64,000 nt of DNA from a virus (Duplodnaviria; Caudoviricetes), in IMG/VR virus record IMGVR_UViG_3300028591_000131, positions 39,185 to 103,184 of that record. One strand, given 5' to 3'. Below, one piece after another: positions 22,690 to 54,587 of this stretch; position 1 is the stretch's first letter; each line of letters begins with the position of its first letter. Below the pieces are notes generated by a model. That model was not told the DNA's origin and ran no database searches. It saw only the letters and a program-made list of their open reading frames with translations. Position numbers and translations under genes: made by a program.

Positions 22690-23061
22690 ATGAAATTAGT
22701 AGATTTCATTAGCGCAGCAAAAAAATTCAACCATTTCACGGACGTTTGCGATGAGTCGGAAATTGAAAAAATTGTATCTATCATTTCCAGACCTTACGCA
22801 GCGTTTACAACTAAAAACGGGCAAAACGTCCCAGCTGGTATTAGCTATCAATTAGCTACAAAAGAGGGCGCGTTTAAAGTGAAGTGCACCGAAAAAACTT
22901 TCAATGCTTTTGTGTGTTTAGTTAATAGTAATATTCCGAATACGGAGTACAAAAAGTATGTTACATTGACACATTTTGAGGGCAAAAATGCAGACGGTGA
23001 GGAATACGAAGTAAATACATTCACTTGTATTTACAATCCCATTGAGGAGCAGGCTGAATAG
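22690..23061 (+). CDS. First plus-strand (early) hypothetical protein
   Basis: 123 aa, AT-rich leader, own terminator. Confidence 0.7.
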   Translation: MKLVDFISAAKKFNHFTDVCDESEIEKIVSIISRPYAAFTTKNGQNVPAGISYQLATKEGAFKVKCTEKTFNAFVCLVNSNIPNTEYKKYVTLTHFEGKNADGEEYEVNTFTCIYNPIEEQAE

Positions 23062-23077
23062 CCTGTTCCCCTTTTTT
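23046..23077 (+). terminator. Rho-independent terminator
   Basis: ggagcaggct-gaat-agcctgttcc followed by a T run. Confidence 0.75.
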
Positions 23078-23190
23078 GGGTTAACTGCAGAGCTAGATTA
23101 ATTTTTTTAACTTTGTAGTTGACCTAGTTCACGCTTTATTATCCACTTAGATTAAATTAGTCTCGTCTTGGTGGTGTTAACAACAGAGGC

Positions 23191-23319
23191 TAAGCAATTA
23201 TTTATTGTGAGGTGGAATTTGACGTGTCGTATGACCTTTGAGTGCTGGTGAAAACCCAAGCTCGTCAAATTACAGAGGTGGTTTGGGTCGCACCCAAGGT
23301 AACAATAAATAATTGTTTA
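23191..23319 (+). ncRNA. Candidate multibranched structured RNA
   Basis: 18-bp closing stem (23191-23208/23302-23319) enclosing aatttgacg/cgtcaaatt and ttgggt/acccaa helices. Confidence 0.45.
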
Positions 23320-23865
23320 AGTTGTTGAGAATGAGAGAGATGATAATAACTCACCATCTCTCTCACTTCCCAGCAATTATCCCCAATTAAAATTGCTAAC
23401 GTAAAAGTATTAGCAATTTTGGGGATATTAATTTTATTAAAAGGTTGTGGATTGTCCTACAAAATCCTCATTAAGTTACTTTCATTTTGTATTGACCTTG
23501 TGAGCTTGCTCCCATCGTTAACCTGCTCTCATTATTAAGCCGATAATGAATGGAGTCGGTAAAACTCTCTGCAACATCAGGGAATTTGGCAATAATCCAT
23601 CAGTTAGGCTACAGTAGCTGATGCACGTATTGTTTAATTCTCTGATGCCAAGTAATATGATTTTCTAGACATTTAAAATTATCTGTGGCCTATGTACTGG
23701 TATAGAAAATTCCATAATCCTGTGACGACAGGTTACATGCTGATAACACTATTGATTTGCAGCAATAGTTGTGATAAGCATTGTAAGTTATCAATGTTCT
23801 GCAAGCATTGATAACGAAAATTATCCTCTGGGTGAGACAGACGTGTCTTGCATCGCGACCAGAGG

Positions 23866-23930
23866 ATTGTGTAATGTGGCTCGTCATTTGATGAACGGTT
23901 CCAAGCCCGTATAAATACAGAGGACACAAT
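23866..23930 (+). ncRNA. Twister ribozyme (type P1)
   Basis: P1 attgtg/cacaat, U^AA cleavage site (23872/23873), ggct/agcc pseudoknot, P3 tcat/atga, P4 acgg-ttccaagc-ccgt, 3' GAG+GA; matches the twister consensus order. Confidence 0.8.
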
Positions 23931-23933
23931 AAA

Positions 23934-24144
23934 AAACTCAATATAAAATATCCTTGTGGAGTTGTGGGGTAACTGCGTAAAACAGAGGATTTCCAAGATG
24001 TTGAGGACGCCAGTTTCTTATAGAGACTATAACAAATTAAGCTTGTGATCTTATGATAATAAAACATCTTGTTATTATAAACTGAGTGTGGTAAGGTAAA
24101 CAATTGATTTGTTGTACTATAAGTTTTAGGCGTAAAACACAAAA
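23934..24144 (+). ncRNA. Unnamed conserved structured RNA motif, copy 1
   Basis: AAACTCAAYA...CCAAGATGTTGAGG...GTAAAACACAAAA shared with 29304-29455, with covarying stems. Confidence 0.7.
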
Positions 24145-24153
24145 ATTAAAATT

Positions 24154-24651
24154 ATGGATATCTCAAAAATATTAAAAAAATGTCCCGCTGGGACAAAATT
24201 ATATTCTCCTATATTGGGAGATTGTTTCCTAAGAAAGGTATCTGCAAACGGAATTGTAGTAACACATATATTAGATCCATTGCGTGAATATCAATTCACA
24301 ATAGATGGAAAATATACTGTGGTAGGAAATATTCCAACTGCAGAGTGTGTATTATTTCCATCTAAAGAAAATAGTGATTGGTCAACATTCCAACAATCTA
24401 GGTTAGCAGAATACTCTACAGAAGAATTGCGTAAAGAACTTAAAAGACGTAATACTGAAGAAAAGGCATTACGTCAAAAAGAGTTCGATTCTGCACACAG
24501 ATGTAGAAATTGTAAGTTCTTTGAACTAGAACCAAATACAATATTTGGTAGTCATATTTGCGCTGCTCGTACATGGGGTAAAAACATTAAACGACATTAT
24601 GTCGTAAATGGTTCCCACGGTGTGCAATGTAAAGAATTTGTTCATAAATAA
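24154..24651 (+). CDS. Hypothetical protein (Bacteroidota-phage 'GTKLYSP' type)
   Basis: 'ILKKCPAGTKLYSPILG...ECVLFPSKENSDWS' and a Cys-rich C-terminus. Confidence 0.7.
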   Translation: MDISKILKKCPAGTKLYSPILGDCFLRKVSANGIVVTHILDPLREYQFTIDGKYTVVGNIPTAECVLFPSKENSDWSTFQQSRLAEYSTEELRKELKRRNTEEKALRQKEFDSAHRCRNCKFFELEPNTIFGSHICAARTWGKNIKRHYVVNGSHGVQCKEFVHK

Positions 24652-24660
24652 AAAATAGAT

Positions 24661-24840
24661 ATGTATTTCTTAATTGGGATTAAAAGCCTATTTTCAGACA
24701 GCATAGATGTATTGGATCAAGATCCATCATATGATGTATTAGCTAGAATTAAACGTGTAGCTGATATGACATTGAAATCAGATGATCCATATGTTATGAA
24801 ATACAAACGTCTTGAAATTAGAAAAGATATTTTAGAATAA
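24661..24840 (+). CDS. Small hypothetical protein (59 aa)
   Basis: ATG..TAA frame filling the gap between two genes; not in the ORF track. Confidence 0.5.
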   Translation: MYFLIGIKSLFSDSIDVLDQDPSYDVLARIKRVADMTLKSDDPYVMKYKRLEIRKDILE

Positions 24841-24851
24841 AATTAATCAAT

Positions 24852-25427
24852 ATGTGCTTATTTATTGATATAAAAAAACATAAAAATTTAAAACCAAAAA
24901 TAGCAAGACAAGATGTTTTTGGTTATAAAGTATTATTGTATAGTTGTTCACGAAAAGAGTTTTATACTCCATACATGCATATTCCAGTTGATGTAACTAC
25001 GGAGTTAAAATGTAGGCGCTTTCAAAATACTCCTCAAATACTAATAAATAATGAGGTTTATTGTATTAATAAAGCGATACATCTGTTTTCTACTGTAAAA
25101 AACGCAATAGATAACGCTCAATTGTGTATTAGCAAGATATCTAATATGGCTAATACATATACATTTGCTTGTGTATATCGTGTCACAATACCAAAGGGTA
25201 ATAAATATTGGATTGGTATGTACTACGACATATGCACAAAATCTATTTGTTTTAAAGATATTATTCAGGTGTTCTGTGATCCCCCTATAAACACTGGAAG
25301 AAGTTTGAAATTCTTACAAAATAAATGTATTAATCTTTTAAGAGATGGAGTTAACGAAGATATACTTCGTAACTTTTTCTATTCTATTGATGTTGATAAA
25401 ATAATTTGTGAGTATACCGAGGCATAA
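24852..25427 (+). CDS. Hypothetical protein, paralog of 30061-30411
   Basis: MCL...YKVL...TPYM...IPKG.KYWIG. Confidence 0.7.
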   Translation: MCLFIDIKKHKNLKPKIARQDVFGYKVLLYSCSRKEFYTPYMHIPVDVTTELKCRRFQNTPQILINNEVYCINKAIHLFSTVKNAIDNAQLCISKISNMANTYTFACVYRVTIPKGNKYWIGMYYDICTKSICFKDIIQVFCDPPINTGRSLKFLQNKCINLLRDGVNEDILRNFFYSIDVDKIICEYTEA

Positions 25428-25766
25428 CTTGGTATACTCAAACCTACGTATTAATCAAGGATTATCAACTATACAATTTCTTGGACCTGGTTTATTGTAC
25501 TAGTCGATAATCCTTTTATAAAATAGAGAAAATGTATATCAAAATTATTAAAGTTATTAAATGAGACGATAAATAAACATTTTCGATGGTTCATGTGAAA
25601 ATCATCTGCGGTGGTTGCTACACTACCAAGAAGCATAATATATGTTTAGATGAATTAGCTTTATAATGCATTATGTTGTATTGTTGGTCGTACATCGCCA
25701 GGTAGCAACAATATAAACATAATGTATCGATGCCACAGTGTTGGAATTGGTAGACAAGAGGGACTT

Positions 25767-26926
25767 AATTTTAAATTTGAGTGCATAGGCGAGAAATCCC
25801 TATGTAGAATCTCCTAAATTCGGTGGAAATCCTTTGCTCACAAGGCGGCGGATTAGAGCGAAACTTGTATTAGCTCAAAATCTATGGGTCGTCGGATGGA
25901 GTTACAAGGTGCTAAACAATAATGTACAAGGACTATACCGAGCGAAAATAAACAAACTGAAAGTAATATCAGTAAGGATTCAATCACTTAGAGGAATGTT
26001 TATAATCGTGTAGAGACTATAAACGTTTATTTATTAACTGTACTAAAATGTATTAGAAATGACAAAAGAAGAAAAAGCAGCAATTAGAGGTATGATGATT
26101 GGTGATTCATATTTAAGAAGAAAACAAAATTCTTATACAACAGAGTTATCAATTATTCATTCTCAAAAACAAAGAGATTATTTTCACTATAAAAGAAAAT
26201 TTCTTGAAACCGCATTCGGTAATAAAATAAATTTTTCTGAATATCTTAATGAAGGATATCCTTCTATAAGGTTATGTGTAGTACATAAATATTTAAACTT
26301 CTGCTTTAAATGGTTATATAAAAACCATAAAAAGTATATTAGTTTAAGATATTTAAGAAAAATCAATAATCAAGGAATTGCTTTTTGGTATATGGATGAT
26401 GGTAGTTTATATGCTAAGAAAACAAATGGAAAAATCCATGCTTATGAACTTGTAATATCTATGTATTCTTCTAAAGAAGAAGCAATGAATGCTATTAAGT
26501 TTATGAAAGAAAGATTAGATGTTAATTTTACCTTAAAATATAACAAAGGTAAATATTCTATTCGGTGTGGAACTAATATGGCAAAAAAGTTTTTAGAGCA
26601 AATAGATTGTTATATCCCCGAATGTATGTCATATAAAACGTTTAGAAGAACGGGAGATACCTAAGTTGGAATTGGATGATAATAAGCATAAGAAAATCTA
26701 CGATAATTGCATTATTTGATTTAATGTGTATGTCGAGAATAGCTTAGTACTATGTGATATATTATCTTCTCGCGAGAATTTCAATATGGTAAAGAGACAG
26801 TCCAGACCACAAATAAATTAACTGGCAAAAATTGTAAATACCCGTGGAAATCGGGCGTGTGTGGCTTAAAAACCCTCACGGCGTTAGTCAAGGTTAATTT
26901 ATGCTATGGTAACATAGTGTGGCAGG
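25767..26926 (+). mobile_element. Group I intron (IC3-like core) in the tRNA-Leu anticodon after U34
   Basis: 5' exon ends in U pairing with G of the IGS (actt/gagt); P aaattcggtggaaa, Q ataccgagc, R gtgtagagact, S aaagagacagtcc; P3 atctcct/gggagat; terminal G26926. Confidence 0.9.
26059..26664 (+). CDS. LAGLIDADG homing endonuclease (intron-encoded)
   Basis: Two motifs, 'AAIRGMMIGDSYL' and 'GIAFWYMDDGSL'. Confidence 0.9.
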   Translation: MTKEEKAAIRGMMIGDSYLRRKQNSYTTELSIIHSQKQRDYFHYKRKFLETAFGNKINFSEYLNEGYPSIRLCVVHKYLNFCFKWLYKNHKKYISLRYLRKINNQGIAFWYMDDGSLYAKKTNGKIHAYELVISMYSSKEEAMNAIKFMKERLDVNFTLKYNKGKYSIRCGTNMAKKFLEQIDCYIPECMSYKTFRRTGDT

Positions 26927-26981
26927 AAAATCCCTTGCCCGCAAGGGCGTGCGGGTTCAAGTCCCGCCTGTGGTACAAAAA

Positions 26982-27143
26982 ATAAATTAGTTGATCCGAG
27001 GTTCAAGAAGGCCCCCGTAAGATGGCTAATCGTGGGGCAATGCTTGAGATGGACATTGTGAAGGGACAGCCATAAGTCTTGAAGTACAGTTAGATGTGGA
27101 GGTCTGCTGAAAGAAGGTGACCGGGTAGGATCAACTAATTTAT
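26982..27143 (+). ncRNA. Candidate structured RNA between tRNAs
   Basis: Perfect 16-bp closing stem; inner helices ttcaaga/tcttgaa, atggct/agccat, caatg/cattg; GC-rich for this genome. Confidence 0.5.
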
Positions 27144-27150
27144 AGCAAAA

Positions 27151-27249
27151 ATATATTGCTTCATTGGTTTGAGTCCAATACTGTCCACAACCTATATGGT
27201 GACTAATGTGGGCGGTAAACGAGTAGTCGTTGTTGATTAGGCAATATAT
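27151..27249 (+). ncRNA. Candidate circularly permuted tRNA-like RNA (T arm, closed acceptor, D-like arm)
   Basis: attgg-TTTGAGT-ccaat T arm; actgtcc/gggcggt helix; aacga/tcgtt arm; closing atatattgctt/aggcaatatat. Confidence 0.4.
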
Positions 27250-27306
27250 CTTTTAGTTTTGGTTAATAAAAAGTCACAGTATATTTCCCTTCTATACTGT
27301 GACAAT

Positions 27307-27381
27307 GCTATCGTAGCTCAGTTGGTTAGTAGCAGTTGCCTTATAAGCAACAGGTCACTGGTTCAAGTCCAGTCGGTAGCA
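27307..27381 (+). tRNA. tRNA-Ile(UAU)
   Basis: Acceptor GCTATCG/CGGTAGC+A, anticodon arm GTTGC-CTTATAA-GCAAC, T arm ACTGG-TTCAAGT-CCAGT. Confidence 0.88.
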
Positions 27382-27409
27382 CAATTGTCAAATTTTTAAA
27401 TTAAACAAA

Positions 27410-27619
27410 ATGGAAATGGAAAAAGTTATTTTTACACTAACTGTAATTACATTAGGATGTTTCAGTTGTTTTGTTGTTACATATTGTGCAGTCATAACAA
27501 TATGTGAAACTAAGCACTGTCCCGAATTAATAACATTAGGTACAGCATTAGCACTTACAATGGTACTTTATTTCTTAATAGATATCATCAAATTCGTTTG
27601 GAAAGGAGGTCGAGAATGA
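27410..27619 (+). CDS. Small two-TM membrane protein
   Basis: Two hydrophobic stretches. Confidence 0.6.
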   Translation: MEMEKVIFTLTVITLGCFSCFVVTYCAVITICETKHCPELITLGTALALTMVLYFLIDIIKFVWKGGRE

Positions 27620-27945
27620 CATCTAATATGAATAAAAATCTTTGGGACGCACTCGCTTTGTTGTTTCAATGGATTTTATTAGCAATTATATTTACAGCAA
27701 CATTTGCATTTGCTGTAGCTATGTGTTCGTGCTCTACTCAGAAAAATATTTCTTCAGAAGAATACTATGAGGAATATTTTTACTACGACGAAATGTTATA
27801 TTATGATGCAGATCGTAATATAATTCTATACTATTGGGATGATCCATACGAGATATCTCTTGAGGGTGTAACGGTCGAAGATATTATGGATTCTGATTTT
27901 GTAATAACAAATGATAATAAATTGGAATATGTACAAGAAAGATGA
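27616..27945 (+). CDS. Putative lipoprotein/membrane protein
   Basis: Hydrophobic N-terminus ending ...AMCSC, acidic Tyr-rich remainder; ATGA overlap with the upstream gene. Confidence 0.55.
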   Translation: MTSNMNKNLWDALALLFQWILLAIIFTATFAFAVAMCSCSTQKNISSEEYYEEYFYYDEMLYYDADRNIILYYWDDPYEISLEGVTVEDIMDSDFVITNDNKLEYVQER

Positions 27946-28984
27946 CAAAGTTGTATTTAAAGTTGGAAAAGAATCTTTTGAATATACTGTTGTAAAAGTT
28001 TTTGATAATCGTTGGTATTTATCGATAGTAACGGCTAGTAATTCAATTATTTTCTACAAACTTAATATTGTTGACAAATTTAAGTTTGTTAAAGATATTT
28101 CAAAATATGCAACGGATGATAAAAGTGTATCTTTTCCAGAAATAGTATATCCAGATGAAACAGAAATAAATAAAGTTATAGACGCTTTATTGGAAAAATG
28201 TGACGAATACAATAAACTCAACGGTACAACAATGTGCTATAATCATGGAGATAAAATTGCATTTAAATTACCAGGTAAAAATTATAATTATCGTGTTGTA
28301 AAAGATGATATATCGACAGTGATTCGTTGGTATTTGACAAACGATGCTTGGATAGGCCATAATGATCAAATTCTTAATGATTTAAATATTAAGGATAAAA
28401 TACAATTTTGTAGAGATGTTTCAGGATGTGATATATCATCCGGAATATTTCCAGCAATATATTGTCCAGATTCTACTGGCATTTCTAAAATAATAAATAA
28501 ACTTATGGAAATGTGTGAAGAACAAATGAAGGAGTCATTAAAAACTGAAGGAAAAATTTCTACAGAAACAACTTCACAAAAACCAATTTTTAAAGTAGGT
28601 GACTATGTCAGAGTTATATTTAGAGAAAACGTTAAAGACTCCAATTGTTACAGATTTGGATTTGTAAAAGAGATGTTACCGTATTGTGGTAATACATACA
28701 TTGTCCATTACGTTTTTGATAGCCATTCAGAAGCAGGGAGTGAACCCGACGATGGTATGCTGTATAATTTAAAGACAGCCAGTGGAAATATATTACCTTA
28801 CAATTTTGCATCAAGTATGTTGATGCCTGCACGTAATATAATACCTCCACAATCACCTTTTCTGGAAGGAATCAAACTAGTTGATCCATTTATAGACGAT
28901 TGTATACAAACAAAAGTTGATTCTGAAACAAAAATGGTGTCGAAGAAATCGACACCAGAATATAAATTAAAATTCACAAATTAA
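27911..28984 (+). CDS. Hypothetical protein with an internal tandem domain duplication
   Basis: Two ~100 aa repeats (DK..FK....Y.VVK...RWYL...LNI.DK..F..D.S...FP.I..PD...I.K.I..L.E.C.E), then an FKVGD.V module. Confidence 0.75.
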   Translation: MIINWNMYKKDDKVVFKVGKESFEYTVVKVFDNRWYLSIVTASNSIIFYKLNIVDKFKFVKDISKYATDDKSVSFPEIVYPDETEINKVIDALLEKCDEYNKLNGTTMCYNHGDKIAFKLPGKNYNYRVVKDDISTVIRWYLTNDAWIGHNDQILNDLNIKDKIQFCRDVSGCDISSGIFPAIYCPDSTGISKIINKLMEMCEEQMKESLKTEGKISTETTSQKPIFKVGDYVRVIFRENVKDSNCYRFGFVKEMLPYCGNTYIVHYVFDSHSEAGSEPDDGMLYNLKTASGNILPYNFASSMLMPARNIIPPQSPFLEGIKLVDPFIDDCIQTKVDSETKMVSKKSTPEYKLKFTN

Positions 28985-28997
28985 AAAAATTAAAATT

Positions 28998-29291
28998 ATG
29001 ATTAGAATTATTGCAATTCTCAGCGAGAAAATTGAAGAACAAAAGATGAAAAACAAAGTCAATCGTGTTAAAAACAGTATCCAGGCTGCAAGATTGAATG
29101 CTGAAACTGACATGATGCAAATCGCAGACAAGCGTATTGCCATCATTGAGTCACTTAAAGAAAAGGAAACTCCTGATGTCTTGGAAGCTCTTGTAGGCTG
29201 TGAGGCTGAACTTGATGCTGTTCAGAAGAATCTTCAGTATCTCGATAATGTCGAAAAGTTCTTATTTGAAGAAATTCAAAATAAGAAGTAG
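28998..29291 (+). CDS. Coiled-coil hypothetical protein
   Basis: 97 aa helical. Confidence 0.7.
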   Translation: MIRIIAILSEKIEEQKMKNKVNRVKNSIQAARLNAETDMMQIADKRIAIIESLKEKETPDVLEALVGCEAELDAVQKNLQYLDNVEKFLFEEIQNKK

Positions 29292-29303
29292 TGAAATTTA
29301 AAT

Positions 29304-29455
29304 AAACTCAACAATAATCCCAAGATGTTGAGGGCACGGGAGTTTTACTCTACAATTGACCGGTCTGGCAAATTGAACATCCGGTTTGCCATAAAGAGGT
29401 GCATGAGATAATGCCGCTCGCACTCAGTAGAGATTTTTCCGTGTAAAACACAAAA
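29304..29455 (+). ncRNA. Unnamed conserved structured RNA motif, copy 2
   Basis: Same conserved blocks as 23934-24144; stem gcacgg/ccgtgt replaces acgcc/ggcgt. Confidence 0.7.
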
Positions 29456-29479
29456 TAGAACAATTAAAATTCAATAAAT

Positions 29480-29644
29480 ATGGAAGAAATTATAAAGAAA
29501 TTAAGAGACTTAGCTGACAGCAGAGATATTGAGGAAGCTCATATCGAAGCTGATGAAATTCTTTGTGACCTTGTGGCCGATTACGTGCCACGTGGTGCCG
29601 AAATCGTAAAACTATTTAACAAAATTGAGAAATGGTATGCGTGA
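29480..29644 (+). CDS. Small phage protein (54 aa)
   Basis: MEEIIKKL...DIEEAHIEADEILC...KWYA; not in the ORF track. Confidence 0.65.
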   Translation: MEEIIKKLRDLADSRDIEEAHIEADEILCDLVADYVPRGAEIVKLFNKIEKWYA

Positions 29645-29831
29645 GTGGTGTCTCATACGTACTGAAAAACAGTTTGTCATTGCTACATCATATGAGATAA
29701 TTGCCAAGGGCACTTATGAACGTATGAAAAAGTTGTATGACAAATTGAACAAATGTAATGAAGGATTGGTTAATCCAAGTTACTATTATGTAATACGCGA
29801 GATTGCGTTTAAACCGGTCAAATTCAAGTGA
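29625..29831 (+). CDS. Hypothetical protein
   Basis: Short ORF overlapping the previous stop. Confidence 0.5.
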   Translation: MRNGMREWCLIRTEKQFVIATSYEIIAKGTYERMKKLYDKLNKCNEGLVNPSYYYVIREIAFKPVKFK

Positions 29832-30060
29832 TAATTTAGTTTGAATATAATTTATCATCTACACGATAGATCGCTTGAAATAGGCCCGTTTAAACGATTT
29901 TTATGAAGAAAGAAATAAAGAAAAGAACCAAAAGAAACAAAGAAAGAAGTCTTCTTTTTTTATTATTATTTTCATTATATCTTTCTTATAATAATATTAA
30001 ATATACTACTTTTATATATTCATATATATATTATATTATTAAATCGAAATTACAAAAATT

Positions 30061-30411
30061 ATGTGTTTAACAGTAAAACGTATCAGACATTTAAACGGGA
30101 AAGCAAAAGTTGCTAAACGTAATATACCGTGTTTGAAAGTATTATATATGTGTAGTAATGGTAAGTTAGTAACACCCTATATGTGGAAATCGATTGAACA
30201 AAATGAAATTGTTCATGGATTGTTTGCAGATAAGTTTGTTGATCAAACAAGGTTTGCACTTATAAAAAATGGAATTTATTCTTATAAACCCACACGTCGT
30301 GTTTTAGCTAATCTTGGTGAAATAGCAATCGCAGCATATATTCCAAAAGGAACCAAATATTGGATTGGTAAAGACGGCGAATACGTATCTGAATGTATTA
30401 AATTTAATTAA
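30061..30411 (+). CDS. Hypothetical protein, paralog of 24852-25427
   Basis: MCL...LKVL...TPYM...IPKGTKYWIG. Confidence 0.7.
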   Translation: MCLTVKRIRHLNGKAKVAKRNIPCLKVLYMCSNGKLVTPYMWKSIEQNEIVHGLFADKFVDQTRFALIKNGIYSYKPTRRVLANLGEIAIAAYIPKGTKYWIGKDGEYVSECIKFN

Positions 30412-30637
30412 AAAAATATGAAAAATACAATTTTAGAAATTTAGTTATGTCAAAAGTATTTTTATTAGTCAGACCAAATGAAAAAGAAAAGAAACTTGAA
30501 GTAAAAAAAACAAGTACTAACTCCACTGAACTTTACAAAGAAATGAATTTCTTTGAGGGTGAACGAGTTATAAAAAGAGATGATTATATCTCTGAGAATG
30601 AAGAATTTAAACAGTTAAACAATTAAATATTAAAATT

Positions 30638-30871
30638 ATGAAAGGCACACCAAAAGCAAGAATTACATTGAACAGATTAAATAAGACTGTGAGGTATAAA
30701 TCCTTAGATGAAAAATTGAATGTAGATTTGATTTTTCAAAAGAAGAACAAGTGTTTTGTTCTTGTTGAAGAAAGAATCAATTGTTCTGGTTACACGAGTG
30801 ATGAACTGGAGCATAAAAAGCAAAGAGTGTTGCAGTACATCACTAAACAATATAATAAAGTATTGTTATAA
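30638..30871 (+). CDS. Hypothetical protein
   Basis: 77 aa, AAAATTATG leader. Confidence 0.55.
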   Translation: MKGTPKARITLNRLNKTVRYKSLDEKLNVDLIFQKKNKCFVLVEERINCSGYTSDELEHKKQRVLQYITKQYNKVLL

Positions 30872-31362
30872 TGGTGGTATCGTATGTTAACAAAAATATA
30901 ATTGACTCTTCAGAAGAGTTAATTATACACCAAGTTAATTGCATGGGAGTTATGGGATCAGGTGTTGCGAAAACAATTCGCGACACCTATCCCAAAGTAT
31001 ATGAAGAATATTCTAGAATGTGTAATGCAGCAAATCGTAAGACATTGTTGGGTACATTTCAAATAGTACGTATTGGCGGAATTAAGAACCGTTATGTATG
31101 TAATTTATTTGGACAATACACATTCGGATATAACGCAAGTAAGCGTTATACTTCATACGATGCATTTGATTTGGCTATAAATAGATTAGTATTATGGTGT
31201 ATAGCTAATGACATTACAAGTGTAGCAATACCCTATGAAATAGGATGTGGTCAAGCTCATGCTAATTGGAGTATAATATACGCCATGATATGCACAGCAT
31301 TTAGTAACACTGATATAAAAATAACTTTTTACAAATTTAAAGAAGAAGATCATGTTTATTAG
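30871..31362 (+). CDS. Macro domain (ADP-ribose binding/hydrolase) protein
   Basis: 'IIHQVNCMGVMGSGVAKTI', 'NLFGQ', 'AIPYEIGCG.A..NW'. Confidence 0.85.
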   Translation: MVVSYVNKNIIDSSEELIIHQVNCMGVMGSGVAKTIRDTYPKVYEEYSRMCNAANRKTLLGTFQIVRIGGIKNRYVCNLFGQYTFGYNASKRYTSYDAFDLAINRLVLWCIANDITSVAIPYEIGCGQAHANWSIIYAMICTAFSNTDIKITFYKFKEEDHVY

Positions 31363-32497
31363 AATAAGAAGCAGAAATAGATCTGCAAGGCAGTTATATC
31401 GTCGAATAACATCGAGAAAACGTGGAGTTTATCGTGCTGGTAGTTATACTCCAACTACGCAAATATTTACCTCACGTGAATTAGCTGCGGGAATCATTGA
31501 AATAAATAAAGAAGAAGCTTGTCGCAAATCTGGCGACAAGATTGTTATGAAAAAGTGTTTTAATGAATGGAATGTTCCAACTGCACCGTGGTGTCAATTA
31601 AAGCAGTATGATACCATAGAAGAAATGACGGAAGATCTTACTGTAGAATATGGAATTGGAAGCCCATATATCGTAAAACACAAAAATTCTTCACGTGGTA
31701 ATGGTATATTTTTCTGGGAACACGATGAAGATCTTTTTGATTTCTGTAATAGAGATGATATAAATATAAATAATTATATCGTTGAACATTGGTTCTCATA
31801 CGTTCGTGAATACAGGTTACATGTGGATAAATTTGGTTGTTTCCTTGCTCATCGTAAAATGTTACGAAATGATGCACAAGTGAGATGGCATAGACATCAT
31901 GAAAATTCAGTATGGATAAACGAAGACAATGAAGATTTTGCCAGACCTGATAATTGGGAAACAATTGTTGAAGCTGCACAGAAGGCAAGAAGATCTGTCG
32001 GTTTAGACATTTGTTCTGTGGATGTAAAAGTTGCAGGAAGAAGAAACAATCCAGATTTCATTATATTGGAAACTAATTCAGGATCTGCTTTAGGTGAAGA
32101 TTCTGCTGAAAAATATGTTGTAGAATTACAAAAAATTGCAGATGATATGAATGCTAACATTTATGAAAGTTTTGAACGTATACAAGATGTTGAATTTGAA
32201 ACTGAAACAGAATCTGAAATAGAGTTATCTGAAGAAGAAACTAATGCCATAAATCTTGTGAAAAATACACAGGAATCTGAATTGAAAACTATAACTCAAA
32301 CGGAAAAAAGTAAACAATCTTGTTGCAAACAATTTATGCAATGTCCATTTGGAAATAAATCCGGATTAAGTTATGGTCAATGCAGCATTAAAAATTCAAT
32401 TTGTGAATTTATAAAATTTGATTCGTCATTTTATAGAAATGATGATGAAGATGATGATGAAAATTATGATGATGATTGGAATGAAGAAGATTTTTAA
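31352..32497 (+). CDS. ATP-grasp ligase (RimK/YheCD-like) with acidic tail
   Basis: 'IVKHKNSSRGNGI', 'EYRLHV', 'VGLDICSVDV...FIILETNS'. Confidence 0.8.
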   Translation: MFIRIRSRNRSARQLYRRITSRKRGVYRAGSYTPTTQIFTSRELAAGIIEINKEEACRKSGDKIVMKKCFNEWNVPTAPWCQLKQYDTIEEMTEDLTVEYGIGSPYIVKHKNSSRGNGIFFWEHDEDLFDFCNRDDININNYIVEHWFSYVREYRLHVDKFGCFLAHRKMLRNDAQVRWHRHHENSVWINEDNEDFARPDNWETIVEAAQKARRSVGLDICSVDVKVAGRRNNPDFIILETNSGSALGEDSAEKYVVELQKIADDMNANIYESFERIQDVEFETETESEIELSEEETNAINLVKNTQESELKTITQTEKSKQSCCKQFMQCPFGNKSGLSYGQCSIKNSICEFIKFDSSFYRNDDEDDDENYDDDWNEEDF

Positions 32498-54332: not shown

Positions 54333-54403
54333 TGAGCTATCGTCTAATGGCAAGACACCAGATTTTGGTTCTGGGAATCGAAGTTCGAATCTTCGTAGCT
54401 CAA
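54333..54403 (+). tRNA. tRNA-Gln(UUG)
   Basis: Acceptor TGAGCTA/TAGCTCA, anticodon arm CCAGA-TTTTGGT-TCTGG, T arm CGAAG-TTCGAAT-CTTCG. Confidence 0.9.
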
Positions 54404-54587
54404 CATAAAAGTCCAATGAAGTGCTAGCTAGTAGTTGGGAACGTACCTAGAATCCGACGCCAAGTAATTGGTAGGTATAAGGCAAATATGCTGATTGAGA
54501 GGATACTGAATCGTATGTGTCAGTGGATGTTGGGGAGGTCATCGGTAATTTAACTCCTATAGATACCTTGCTTTTTTGCAAGGACGT

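Follow-up and report, generated by a model that had tools for sequence, protein, structure and literature searches.

Two copies of one element in the window

The stretch of DNA analysed here (the window, 64 kb) carries on its plus strand two copies of a noncoding element, each followed by an open reading frame (Table 1). The 5' block AAACTCAAYA begins at 23934 in copy 1 and at 29304 in copy 2, and a 14-mer (23993-24006 and 29320-29333) is identical in both; it has no other exact match in the window, nor anywhere else in the complete 103-kb record. At the 3' end both copies contain GTAAAACACAAAA (24132-24144 and 29443-29455), 9 nt upstream of the ATG at 24154 and 24 nt upstream of the ATG at 29480, respectively. 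A third exact GTAAAACACAAAA at 31673 is located within an open reading frame and is not accompanied by other features of the motif. The closing stems (ACGCC/GGCGT in copy 1 versus GCACGG/CCGTGT in copy 2) are present, as are the inner hairpins with the loops AAACATCT and GAACATCC. Sequence blocks, coordinates and pairings were found in both copies as a preliminary description of this DNA had given them.

Copy 1 belongs to a type whose P1 loop accommodates a hairpin insert of 46 nt (23944-23989). Its first base according to the covariance model used below, 23928, is also the last base of a twister-like element and lies six bases before the start assigned in the preliminary description (23934). 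The alignment of this element to the Rfam model RF03160 is full length and keeps the conserved core bases; its score is below the gathering score. In copy 1 the GTTT strand of the pseudoknot PKa directly follows the 5' strand of P2 on its 3' side. Copy 2 starts 7 nt past the stop codon of the open reading frame 28998-29291, so that the motif RNA would be internal to longer transcripts. Compared with the family consensus, P2 of copy 2 has G-C in place of C-G as its fourth pair and is longer by one G-C pair; the P3 domain of this copy is closed by CTCTAC (29348-29353) with GTAGAG (29427-29432). Both copies have the complementary bases for every pair of PKa, P1.1, the tail helix, P2 and P3.

Table 1. 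Features of the two loci (positions in the window; limits of the two copies according to model R1)
Feature	Position	Strand	Remarks
Twister-P1-like candidate ribozyme	23868-23928	+	Rfam RF03160, 56.4 bits (gathering score 67.2), E 4e-12
Motif copy 1	23928-24144	+	model R1, 56.5 bits, E 1.8e-10
Copy 1, PKa 5' A-tract strand AAAC	23934-23937	+	pairs with GTTT 24013-24016
Copy 1, P1 hairpin 5' strand TCAATA	23938-23943	+	pairs with TGTTGA 23999-24004; competes with tail helix
Copy 1, P1.1 5' strand TCC (3-bp pseudoknot)	23992-23994	+	pairs with GGA 24005-24007
Copy 1, TGTT of conserved block	23999-24002	+	tail helix with AACA 24136-24139
Copy 1, P2 5' strand CGCC	24008-24011	+	pairs with GGCG 24129-24132
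Copy 1, variable P3 domain	24018-24122	+	includes hairpin 24053-24078, loop AAACATCT 24062-24069
Copy 1, conserved 3' tail	24132-24144	+	9 nt upstream of ATG, ORF 24154-24651
First ORF behind copy 1	24154-24651	+	165 aa, no family match
Motif copy 2, short P1 loop	29298-29455	+	model R1, 51.6 bits, E 2.4e-9
Copy 2, TGTT	29326-29329	+	pairs with 5' strand 29308-29313 or tail AACA 29447-29450
Copy 2, P2 5' strand CACGG	29335-29339	+	pairs with CCGTG 29439-29443
Copy 2, variable P3 domain	29347-29433	+	includes hairpin 29367-29390, loop GAACATCC 29375-29382
First ORF behind copy 2	29480-29644	+	54 aa, no family match

A phage-borne RNA family

A covariance-model check, as proposed in the preliminary description, was carried out with model R1, which was built from the copies of other phages only, the window copies being left out. 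Both window copies were recovered at full length (model positions 1-116 of 116). Their scores of 56.5 and 51.6 bits, given by a model from other phages, compare with 13 bits for the runner-up among all sites of the 64 kb, so the copies exceed chance; the model finds no further copy in the window. A 19-mer of the 3' part of the motif matched at least 119 IMG/VR contigs, and a second IMG/VR scan, in which the consensus G at block position 29 was barred, yielded at least 115 more. The carriers are Crassvirales, including gut Crassvirales in GenBank, and other phage-like viral contigs (30-185 kb). In 49 of 50 records the search, which scored part of its candidates, detected one to three matches to the motif. 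Sequence identity across phages is very high, and the homology among relatives starts sharply at the A-tract. Some copies are situated near contig ends. Judged by sequence comparison, both elements are copies of one large, previously unnamed, phage-borne family of structured RNAs.

The preliminary description could not assign the element to a nameable family, and Rfam 15 (4227 models) indeed gave no match on either window copy at E up to 10, nor on family members at seven other loci (E up to 0.1) or at locus L353 (E up to 10). The best RAGATH model, RAGATH-22, reached 12.5 bits at a cut-off of 120, which is not a match. Neither window segment had a BLAST match among 50,697 phage records, the open reading frame behind copy 1 led to no relatives in a protein-anchored search, and literature searches found no description of the motif. 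The bare 14-mer returned mostly chance matches (about 13 of about 119 loci were real). crAss001 contains no convincing copy, its best site (23.5 bits, E 0.01) lying in coding-like sequence, and in prokaryote genome records the matches were small MAG contigs or chance, with no sign of a chromosomal home. Many relatives are represented by their conserved core in contigs from the RNA libraries of four rumen and gut metatranscriptomes. Breaks of such contigs at 24013-24021 fall where conserved sequence gives way to variable sequence and probably reflect branch points of the assembly.

Two mutually exclusive folds

Two folds are predicted. In fold A, which would form first during transcription, CUCAAUA and UGUUGAG are paired in the 5' hairpin P1. 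Fold B is a compact multi-pseudoknot, in which the 5' A-tract pairs with GUUU beside P2 (PKa), the loop triplet YCC with GGR (P1.1) and UGUU with AACA of the tail, completed by P2 and the variable P3 domain.

In an alignment of 100 sequences 98.5% of the cells of fold B were paired, compared to 35-50% with the partners slid, and the observed covariation score was reached by none of 500 shuffles. For PKa, about 95-96% of the cells are paired across the family. The earlier proposal that AAACT pairs with AGTTT is supported by a correlated variant, AACTAA with TTAGTT, in L123/L132, L178 and L197:6728. P1.1 occurs in the compensatory types UCC/GGA, CCC/GGG, UGC/GCA, UCU/AGA, CAC/GUG and CCA/UGG, and P2 as CACC/GGUG, CGCC/GGCG, CACU/AGUG, CAGC/GCUG and CGGC/GCCG. 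The base pairs of P3 covary as well, in a domain of 10-250 nt across the family. The covarying stems of a sense-strand structured RNA, seen earlier in the two copies, are borne out by compensatory changes of P2 and P3 in the family, and its pseudoknotted nature by the covariation of PKa and P1.1.

The tail helix, in which UGUU of the block pairs with AACA of the 3' tail AAAACAC, was absent from the preliminary description. About half of the sequences have UG/CA and the other half CA/UG, with UA 52 and CG 47 at pair 28-79, GC 50 and AU 49 at pair 29-78 and 99.5% of the cells paired; these counts come from two scans, each selected on one side of a pair, and it may be that few evolutionary events gave rise to the main tail classes. 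Upon selection on a CAC tail the block has UG, and upon selection on a non-G block base the tails are UGC or UAC. Both P1.1 variants are present in both tail classes. About 50 positions of the motif are near-invariant. Its core contains many invariant unpaired bases and has two tolerated insertion sites, large insertions being tolerated at helix tips only; the minimal size of the motif is about 80 nt.

The lower 6 bp of P1 are kept in 92-100% of the sequences. At two P1 pairs U-G occurs in 33 and 37 of 100 sequences, respectively (pair 15-29: UA 49, UG 37, CG 12), and such common G-U pairs fit an RNA of this strand and not duplex DNA. Most changes in P1 affect one side only, and about half of the sequences have lost its upper pairs; fold A could be an intermediate of folding that has no function itself. 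P1 is incompatible with PKa, P1.1 and the tail helix, although all these pairings are conserved. Comparative analysis of the sequences shows two predicted folds that are mutually exclusive and evolutionarily maintained. As fold B excludes the also conserved 5' hairpin P1, the RNA is probably bistable. The rough energies of both folds are similar. The tail complements UGUU better than the 5' strand does in every sequence class; therefore fold A should give way to fold B.

It had been suggested that pairings compete at the GATGTT block and that the loop RAACATCY is the competitor of CTCAAYA. Competing pairings are supported, but the reciprocal covariation shows AACA of the invariant 3' tail as the competitor in place of the loop. 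The supposedly conserved kissing loop is common to the two window copies and is neither conserved nor enriched in the family, where loop complementarity is no more frequent than in shuffled domains (mean longest complement 3.20 versus 3.39 nt).

Genomic context and possible functions

The motif had been described as heading gene blocks, and in about two thirds of 99 distinct instances an open reading frame does start within 150 nt of the tail. Most of these start codons follow the tail by 12-53 nt (median about 26 nt). A simple occlusion of the ribosome site is unlikely since the distance between tail and start codon is usually too large. Genes behind the motif are unrelated and have no coherent function or family: the largest cluster comprises 19-20 of 210 instances, and the clusters are all small hypothetical proteins. 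At L135 and L168 a terminator-like hairpin follows the motif instead of an open reading frame, and at L189 a tRNA follows directly; a tRNA is close behind the motif in only 3 of 204 cases. The -7 promoter box of Bacteroidetes sigma-A is not enriched upstream of the motif, and no fixed promoter distance was found.

Our best explanation, for and against which we consider the chances evenly balanced, is that the motif is a new cis-acting two-state 5' leader RNA. It would be transcribed in the same direction as the genes that follow it and act in cis as the last noncoding element before the open reading frame. The fold, or the switch between folds, would then set the fate of the downstream message, i.e., its stability, 5' processing or access for translation. 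Such an RNA would be a generic module like the interspersed self-cleaving ribozymes and not the sensor of a single pathway.

Fold B could also be the active structure of a new class of self-cleaving ribozyme, which we regard as possible but rather unlikely. As hatchet and HDV-like ribozymes do, it would perhaps cleave at its 5' edge, close to the A-tract, cutting the downstream message from a polycistronic transcript and leaving the folded RNA as the 5' end of that message. This is suggested by the neighbourhood: besides the twister-like element adjoining copy 1, a hatchet lies 1-2 kb from the motif on the same strand in all four genomes having both, four of five genomes have a twister on the same strand no farther than 2 kb away, and at L161 the order is twister, two copies of a second unnamed motif, the present motif and an open reading frame. 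The complex pseudoknotted core with invariant unpaired bases and two insertion sites, the sharp onset of homology at the A-tract and the missing tie to any downstream gene family would also fit a ribozyme. Hatchet, pistol and twister-sister were reportedly discovered by searching the neighbourhoods of ribozymes. Earlier searches used such neighbourhoods to target ribozyme-rich intergenic regions, but many of the conserved RNAs near ribozymes failed to cleave in tests (PMC5737381). In addition, no known ribozyme model matches the motif, and RNA-library contigs of relatives cross the 5' edge, a weak argument given that these are contigs and that DNA carry-over may contribute. The about 50 near-invariant positions also far exceed the 10-13 highly conserved nucleotides that pistol and hatchet are reported to have.

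A put-like processive antiterminator, whose nascent RNA would bind the transcribing RNA polymerase and let it read through terminators of the early block, is improbable. The orientation-specific occurrence of one to three detected matches per genome at the heads of gene blocks, the strong terminator upstream of copy 1 (23046-23079) and a high conservation across unrelated phages, which would fit a conserved host partner, agree with it. However, no strong terminators were found on the plus strand behind either copy (24144-31000), the architecture is a multi-pseudoknot and not two stem-loops, the promoter distance is not fixed, and copy 2 is inside an operon. Moreover, the early genes of Crassvirales are probably transcribed by a phage-encoded polymerase. 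The context favours a role in processing, as a leader or as a ribozyme over antitermination.

We likewise assign a low probability to a riboswitch-like sensor, in which fold B would be the aptamer for a small molecule or ion reporting the state of the host. The conserved complex core with variable peripheral stems, the two competing folds with mutually exclusive conserved pairings and the 5' UTR position near a start codon resemble a riboswitch, but the downstream genes lack a common function or family, no obvious expression platform covers a ribosome site or terminator, and there is no clue to a ligand. It is highly improbable that the motif is a chance repeat or acts at the DNA level as a promoter, origin or packaging site. 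Very high identity across phages and the copies near contig ends would suit such a reading, but compensatory changes preserve four or five helices, pseudoknots among them, G-U pairs occur often and are strand-specific, large insertions are confined to helix tips, and the scores of model R1 rule out chance.

Relation to known RNAs

In its setting the motif resembles the RAGATH-type orphan RNAs of the Weinberg/Breaker screens, which are also intergenic, sense-strand, conserved, phage-borne and of unassigned function and likewise have ribozyme neighbours, the motif lying within about 2 kb of twister and hatchet. However, no Rfam model of this type fits, and the motif exceeds most such candidates in conservation and in the number of its pseudoknots. 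Hatchet and twister ribozymes occupy the same niche in the same orientation, between a stop codon and the next open reading frame, and also combine a conserved core with a variable peripheral stem, whereas sequence and helix order are unrelated and no covariance model matches. An HDV-like fold was rejected by eye, as the strand order differs and the HDV models gave no match.

The putL and putR RNAs of HK022 likewise act in cis, occur once or twice in a phage genome and head early blocks; they consist of two stem-loops just past promoters, whereas the multi-pseudoknot motif is not anchored to a promoter and has no downstream terminators in view. The T4 gene 32 leader also has a pseudoknot followed by an unstructured A/U-rich stretch up to the start codon, but it autoregulates one gene by its own product, in contrast to the unrelated genes behind the motif. 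Triple-helix pseudoknots and A-tract clamps are represented by the telomerase RNA pseudoknot, SAM-II and viral ENE elements. In the motif the U-tracts AGUUUC and AGUUUUA would lie on opposite strands between P2 and P3, and the conserved A6 tract is predicted to pair with one of them in a polarity that would allow U.A-U triples. Here the A-tract is 5' and transcript-internal, in contrast to a 3' poly(A) tail, and the Rfam ENE models gave no match to the motif.

Crassvirales rank with the most abundant gut viruses of humans and ruminants, and the control of their early genes is poorly understood. In hundreds of phage genomes they and related contigs carry a very conserved multi-pseudoknot RNA that is missing from Rfam, and in the GenBank gut crAss-like genomes the region is simply unannotated. 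The motif is physically interleaved with self-cleaving ribozymes and is a small candidate for a new ribozyme or switch class, with UG/CA and CA/UG as natural compensatory mutants that make the structure directly testable. Tentatively, and with more doubt than confidence, it may represent a new catalytic or ligand- or factor-responsive RNA class (a self-cleaving ribozyme or a true conformational switch), which crAss-like phages of the human gut and rumen would use together with hatchet, twister and the second unnamed motif to build and control early messages from long noncoding arrays. The motif is a marker of the noncoding arrays that head early gene blocks in crAss-like phages.

The RNA family and its distribution

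The two window copies agree with the preliminary description: the conserved blocks, the tail, the stems and the hairpins are all present in the sequence, as is the compensatory difference between the closing stems of copies 1 and 2. Two exact copies of the common 14-mer were found in the window, and the whole 103-kb virus record has no others. The common 13-mer tail is followed by an ATG 9 nt (copy 1) and 24 nt (copy 2) downstream, and the inner hairpin loops are AAACATCT and GAACATCC. A third exact copy of the tail at 31673-31685 (+), within ORF 31352-32497, is surrounded by no other motif features and is probably a coincidence. Neither copy matched any Rfam model, even at E = 10.

Scanning IMG/VR with the bare 14-mer mainly yielded noise and about 13 genuine relatives; a 19-mer from the 3' part of the motif retrieved at least 119 viral contigs. 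A covariance model (R1) was built from a seed alignment of 25 short members from other phages. In the 64-kb window it found copy 1 (56.5 bits), copy 2 (51.6 bits) and no further site. On the first locus set it gave 124 matches, some being additional copies picked by no pattern. Of 50 whole virus records (31-183 kb), many of which have terminal repeats, 49 had one to three detected matches.

The window phage comes from sheep gut and, judged by its major capsid protein, which is 64% identical to the crAss001 counterpart, is a crAss-like phage. No convincing motif copy was found in crAss001, and a search among isolates brought up no cultivable phage-host pair with the motif. The gut Crassvirales in GenBank that carry the motif include cr60_1, cr6_1, cr53_1 and cr109_1. 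In cr60_1 and cr6_1 it is situated inside an unannotated gap 1-1.5 kb long, immediately past the divergent gene-block switch, the same placement as in the window. Among prokaryote genome records the motif occurs solely on small MAG contigs and one 186-kb contig, and therefore looks phage-borne. Many relatives are represented by their conserved core among contigs of rumen metatranscriptomes; such contigs cannot show RNA ends. There is good support for the family as such, for the strand and for the fold of the motif.

Two mutually exclusive folds

The minimal, 84-nt member L068:864-947 served as numbering reference. Insertions are tolerated at two sites, the loop of P1 (3-90 nt; 46 nt in copy 1) and P3 (10-250 nt). 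The covarying stems proposed from the two copies are borne out by the family: covariation backs P2 (five pair combinations between 37-40 and 69-72), the base of P3, the 3-bp pseudoknot P1.1 (six or more combinations between 21-23 and 34-36) and a tail helix that the preliminary description did not contain. In addition, the 5' A-tract (7-10) has its pairing partner in GUUU (42-45), which adjoins P2. Four sequences carry a correlated variant of this pairing, PKa, with AACUAA in the 5' strand and UUAGUU as partner. PKa and P2 together make up a classical H-type pseudoknot. The internal loop that separates P2 from P3 is rich in U and faces the A-tract; it might, speculatively, contribute base triples.

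In the tail helix UGUU of the conserved block (28-31) pairs with AACA of the tail (76-79). It was first spotted in cr60_1 and cr6_1, where UG in the block is changed to CA and CA in the tail to UG. A reciprocal scan requiring a non-G at block position 29, with the tail left unconstrained, retrieved at least 115 contigs more; in nearly all of these CA is matched by the tail UGC, or UA by the tail UAC. In a mixed alignment of 100 sequences the variable pairs are UA 52 / CG 47 and GC 50 / AU 49, with one exception. Both P1.1 variants are present in each of the two tail classes; therefore the changes are not one inherited block.

The alternative fold consists of the 5' hairpin P1 (10-20 with 24-34), which cannot coexist with the tail helix, PKa or P1.1 because it uses the same UGUU as well as C10 and G34. 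Its lower six pairs are retained in 92-100% of the sequences. At pair 15-29 UA, UG and CG are found and C15 and A29 never occur together; pairs 16-28 and 17-27 are disrupted in about half of the sequences. In every class the tail is a better complement to UGUU than the 5' strand, and a rough nearest-neighbour estimate gives the two folds similar energies. We read the motif as a bistable RNA: P1 would be made first, and the pseudoknotted fold would form once the tail has been transcribed. We infer that both folds are functional.

Competing pairings at the conserved block had been suggested before, and they stand in the form of the conserved P1 versus the covarying tail helix. The part assigned to a conserved kissing loop, the RAACATCY hairpin loop in P3, does not: family members show no enrichment of complementarity between P3 and the block (mean longest complement 3.20 nt versus 3.39 nt in shuffles; 6 nt or more in 13 of 176 members). 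Its presence in hairpin loops of both window copies may be a lineage feature.

Ribozymes, a second motif and the neighbouring genes

Features accompanying the motif (positions refer to the window unless a locus or a virus genome record is named)
Feature	Position	Strand	Remark
Intrinsic-terminator-like hairpin, strong	23046-23079	+	10 bp, T-run; end of ORF 22690-23061, before non-coding array
Non-coding gap, ~0.8 kb	23080-23868	+	upstream of twister
Twister-P1-like ribozyme	23868-23928	+	Rfam match below cut-off; ends where copy 1 starts
Motif copy 1	23928-24144	+	
phrog_13450 paralogues (small proteins)	24852-25427; 30061-30411	+	behind copies 1 and 2
LAGLIDADG homing-endonuclease-like ORF	26059-26664	+	between copies 1 and 2
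tRNA-Ile(UAU)	27307-27382	+	between copies 1 and 2
Motif copy 2	29298-29455	+	
tRNA-Gln(UUG)	54333-54404	+	beyond both copies
Hatchet	L161:3088-3239	-	above Rfam cut-off, motif's gene block
Hatchet	L228:5253-5416	+	above Rfam cut-off, motif's gene block
Hatchet	G004, G005, G023, G028		above Rfam cut-off, motif's gene blocks
Second unnamed conserved RNA motif	L161:1690-1802; L161:1951-2092; L142:2109-2191; L353:2808-2897	-	~34 more

The twister-P1-like match in the window scores 56.4 bits (E 4e-12; gathering score 67.2). Comparable sub-threshold twisters were found in five other motif-bearing genomes. Twister-like elements are on the strand of the motif and at most 2 kb away in 4 of 5 genomes. 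Hatchet ribozymes occur in 5 of 50 genomes, and in all four genomes with both elements the hatchet is 1-2 kb from the motif on the same strand; the tabulated hatchets score 64-92 bits.

The second motif, which has no match in Rfam, consists of a 5' block, UCCCAAGGGUGAG then CAGUUGUAAU, and a 3' block, AUUACAACUG then AGUGCAGAGGG, which pair with each other over an intervening variable domain; it shows the co-occurring internal-loop variants GGAC.. and GAAUACAG. Up to two are present per locus, often ending 2-9 nt ahead of the main motif. At locus L161 a 777-nt non-coding stretch contains, in this order, a twister, two second motifs and the main motif, and an ORF comes next. The gap upstream of the window twister may contain further RNAs. 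CAGAGG is repeated in it, a CCCAAGG...AAGTTGTTGAG stretch is reminiscent of both motifs, and positions 23600-23868 recur with at least 95% identity in contigs from several rumen RNA libraries, the summed depth reaching 196.

No Bacteroidetes promoter box was found upstream of the motif, and copy 2 starts 7 nt past a stop codon; the motif RNA therefore lies inside longer transcripts. An ORF starts within 150 nt past the tail in roughly two thirds of the instances (99 distinct ones), its ATG mostly 12-53 nt from the tail; a terminator-like hairpin stands behind a few instances. The proteins encoded downstream are small hypotheticals without mutual relationship. The phrog_13450 paralogues (28% identity, E 9e-11) lie 600-700 nt behind each window copy, an arrangement suggesting that the whole module was duplicated long ago.

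A tRNA is close behind the motif in 3 of 204 cases. At L189 a tRNA-Leu(UAA) begins 2 nt past the tail; at L317 (-) a tRNA with a CUA anticodon, called tRNA-Pyl by ARAGORN and likely an amber suppressor, follows after about 74 nt. The copies L156:1561-1705(-) and L206:13494-13638(+) have a replaced 5' part, and the sequence directly upstream resembles, by eye, the C-terminus of an HNH-type endonuclease, a hint that a homing endonuclease may have inserted at the motif.

Function of the motif

A new class of self-cleaving ribozyme is the main rival to a role as leader and is a real, if clearly less probable, possibility. We doubt that the motif acts as a put-like antiterminator, and a riboswitch appears just as improbable; a signal at the DNA level is hardly credible. 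The reading we favour, to which we would give about an even chance, is a cis-acting leader module that sets how the downstream message is processed, how stable it is or how it is translated, because the gene context is generic, the motif is the last element before the ORF and it keeps company with ribozymes.
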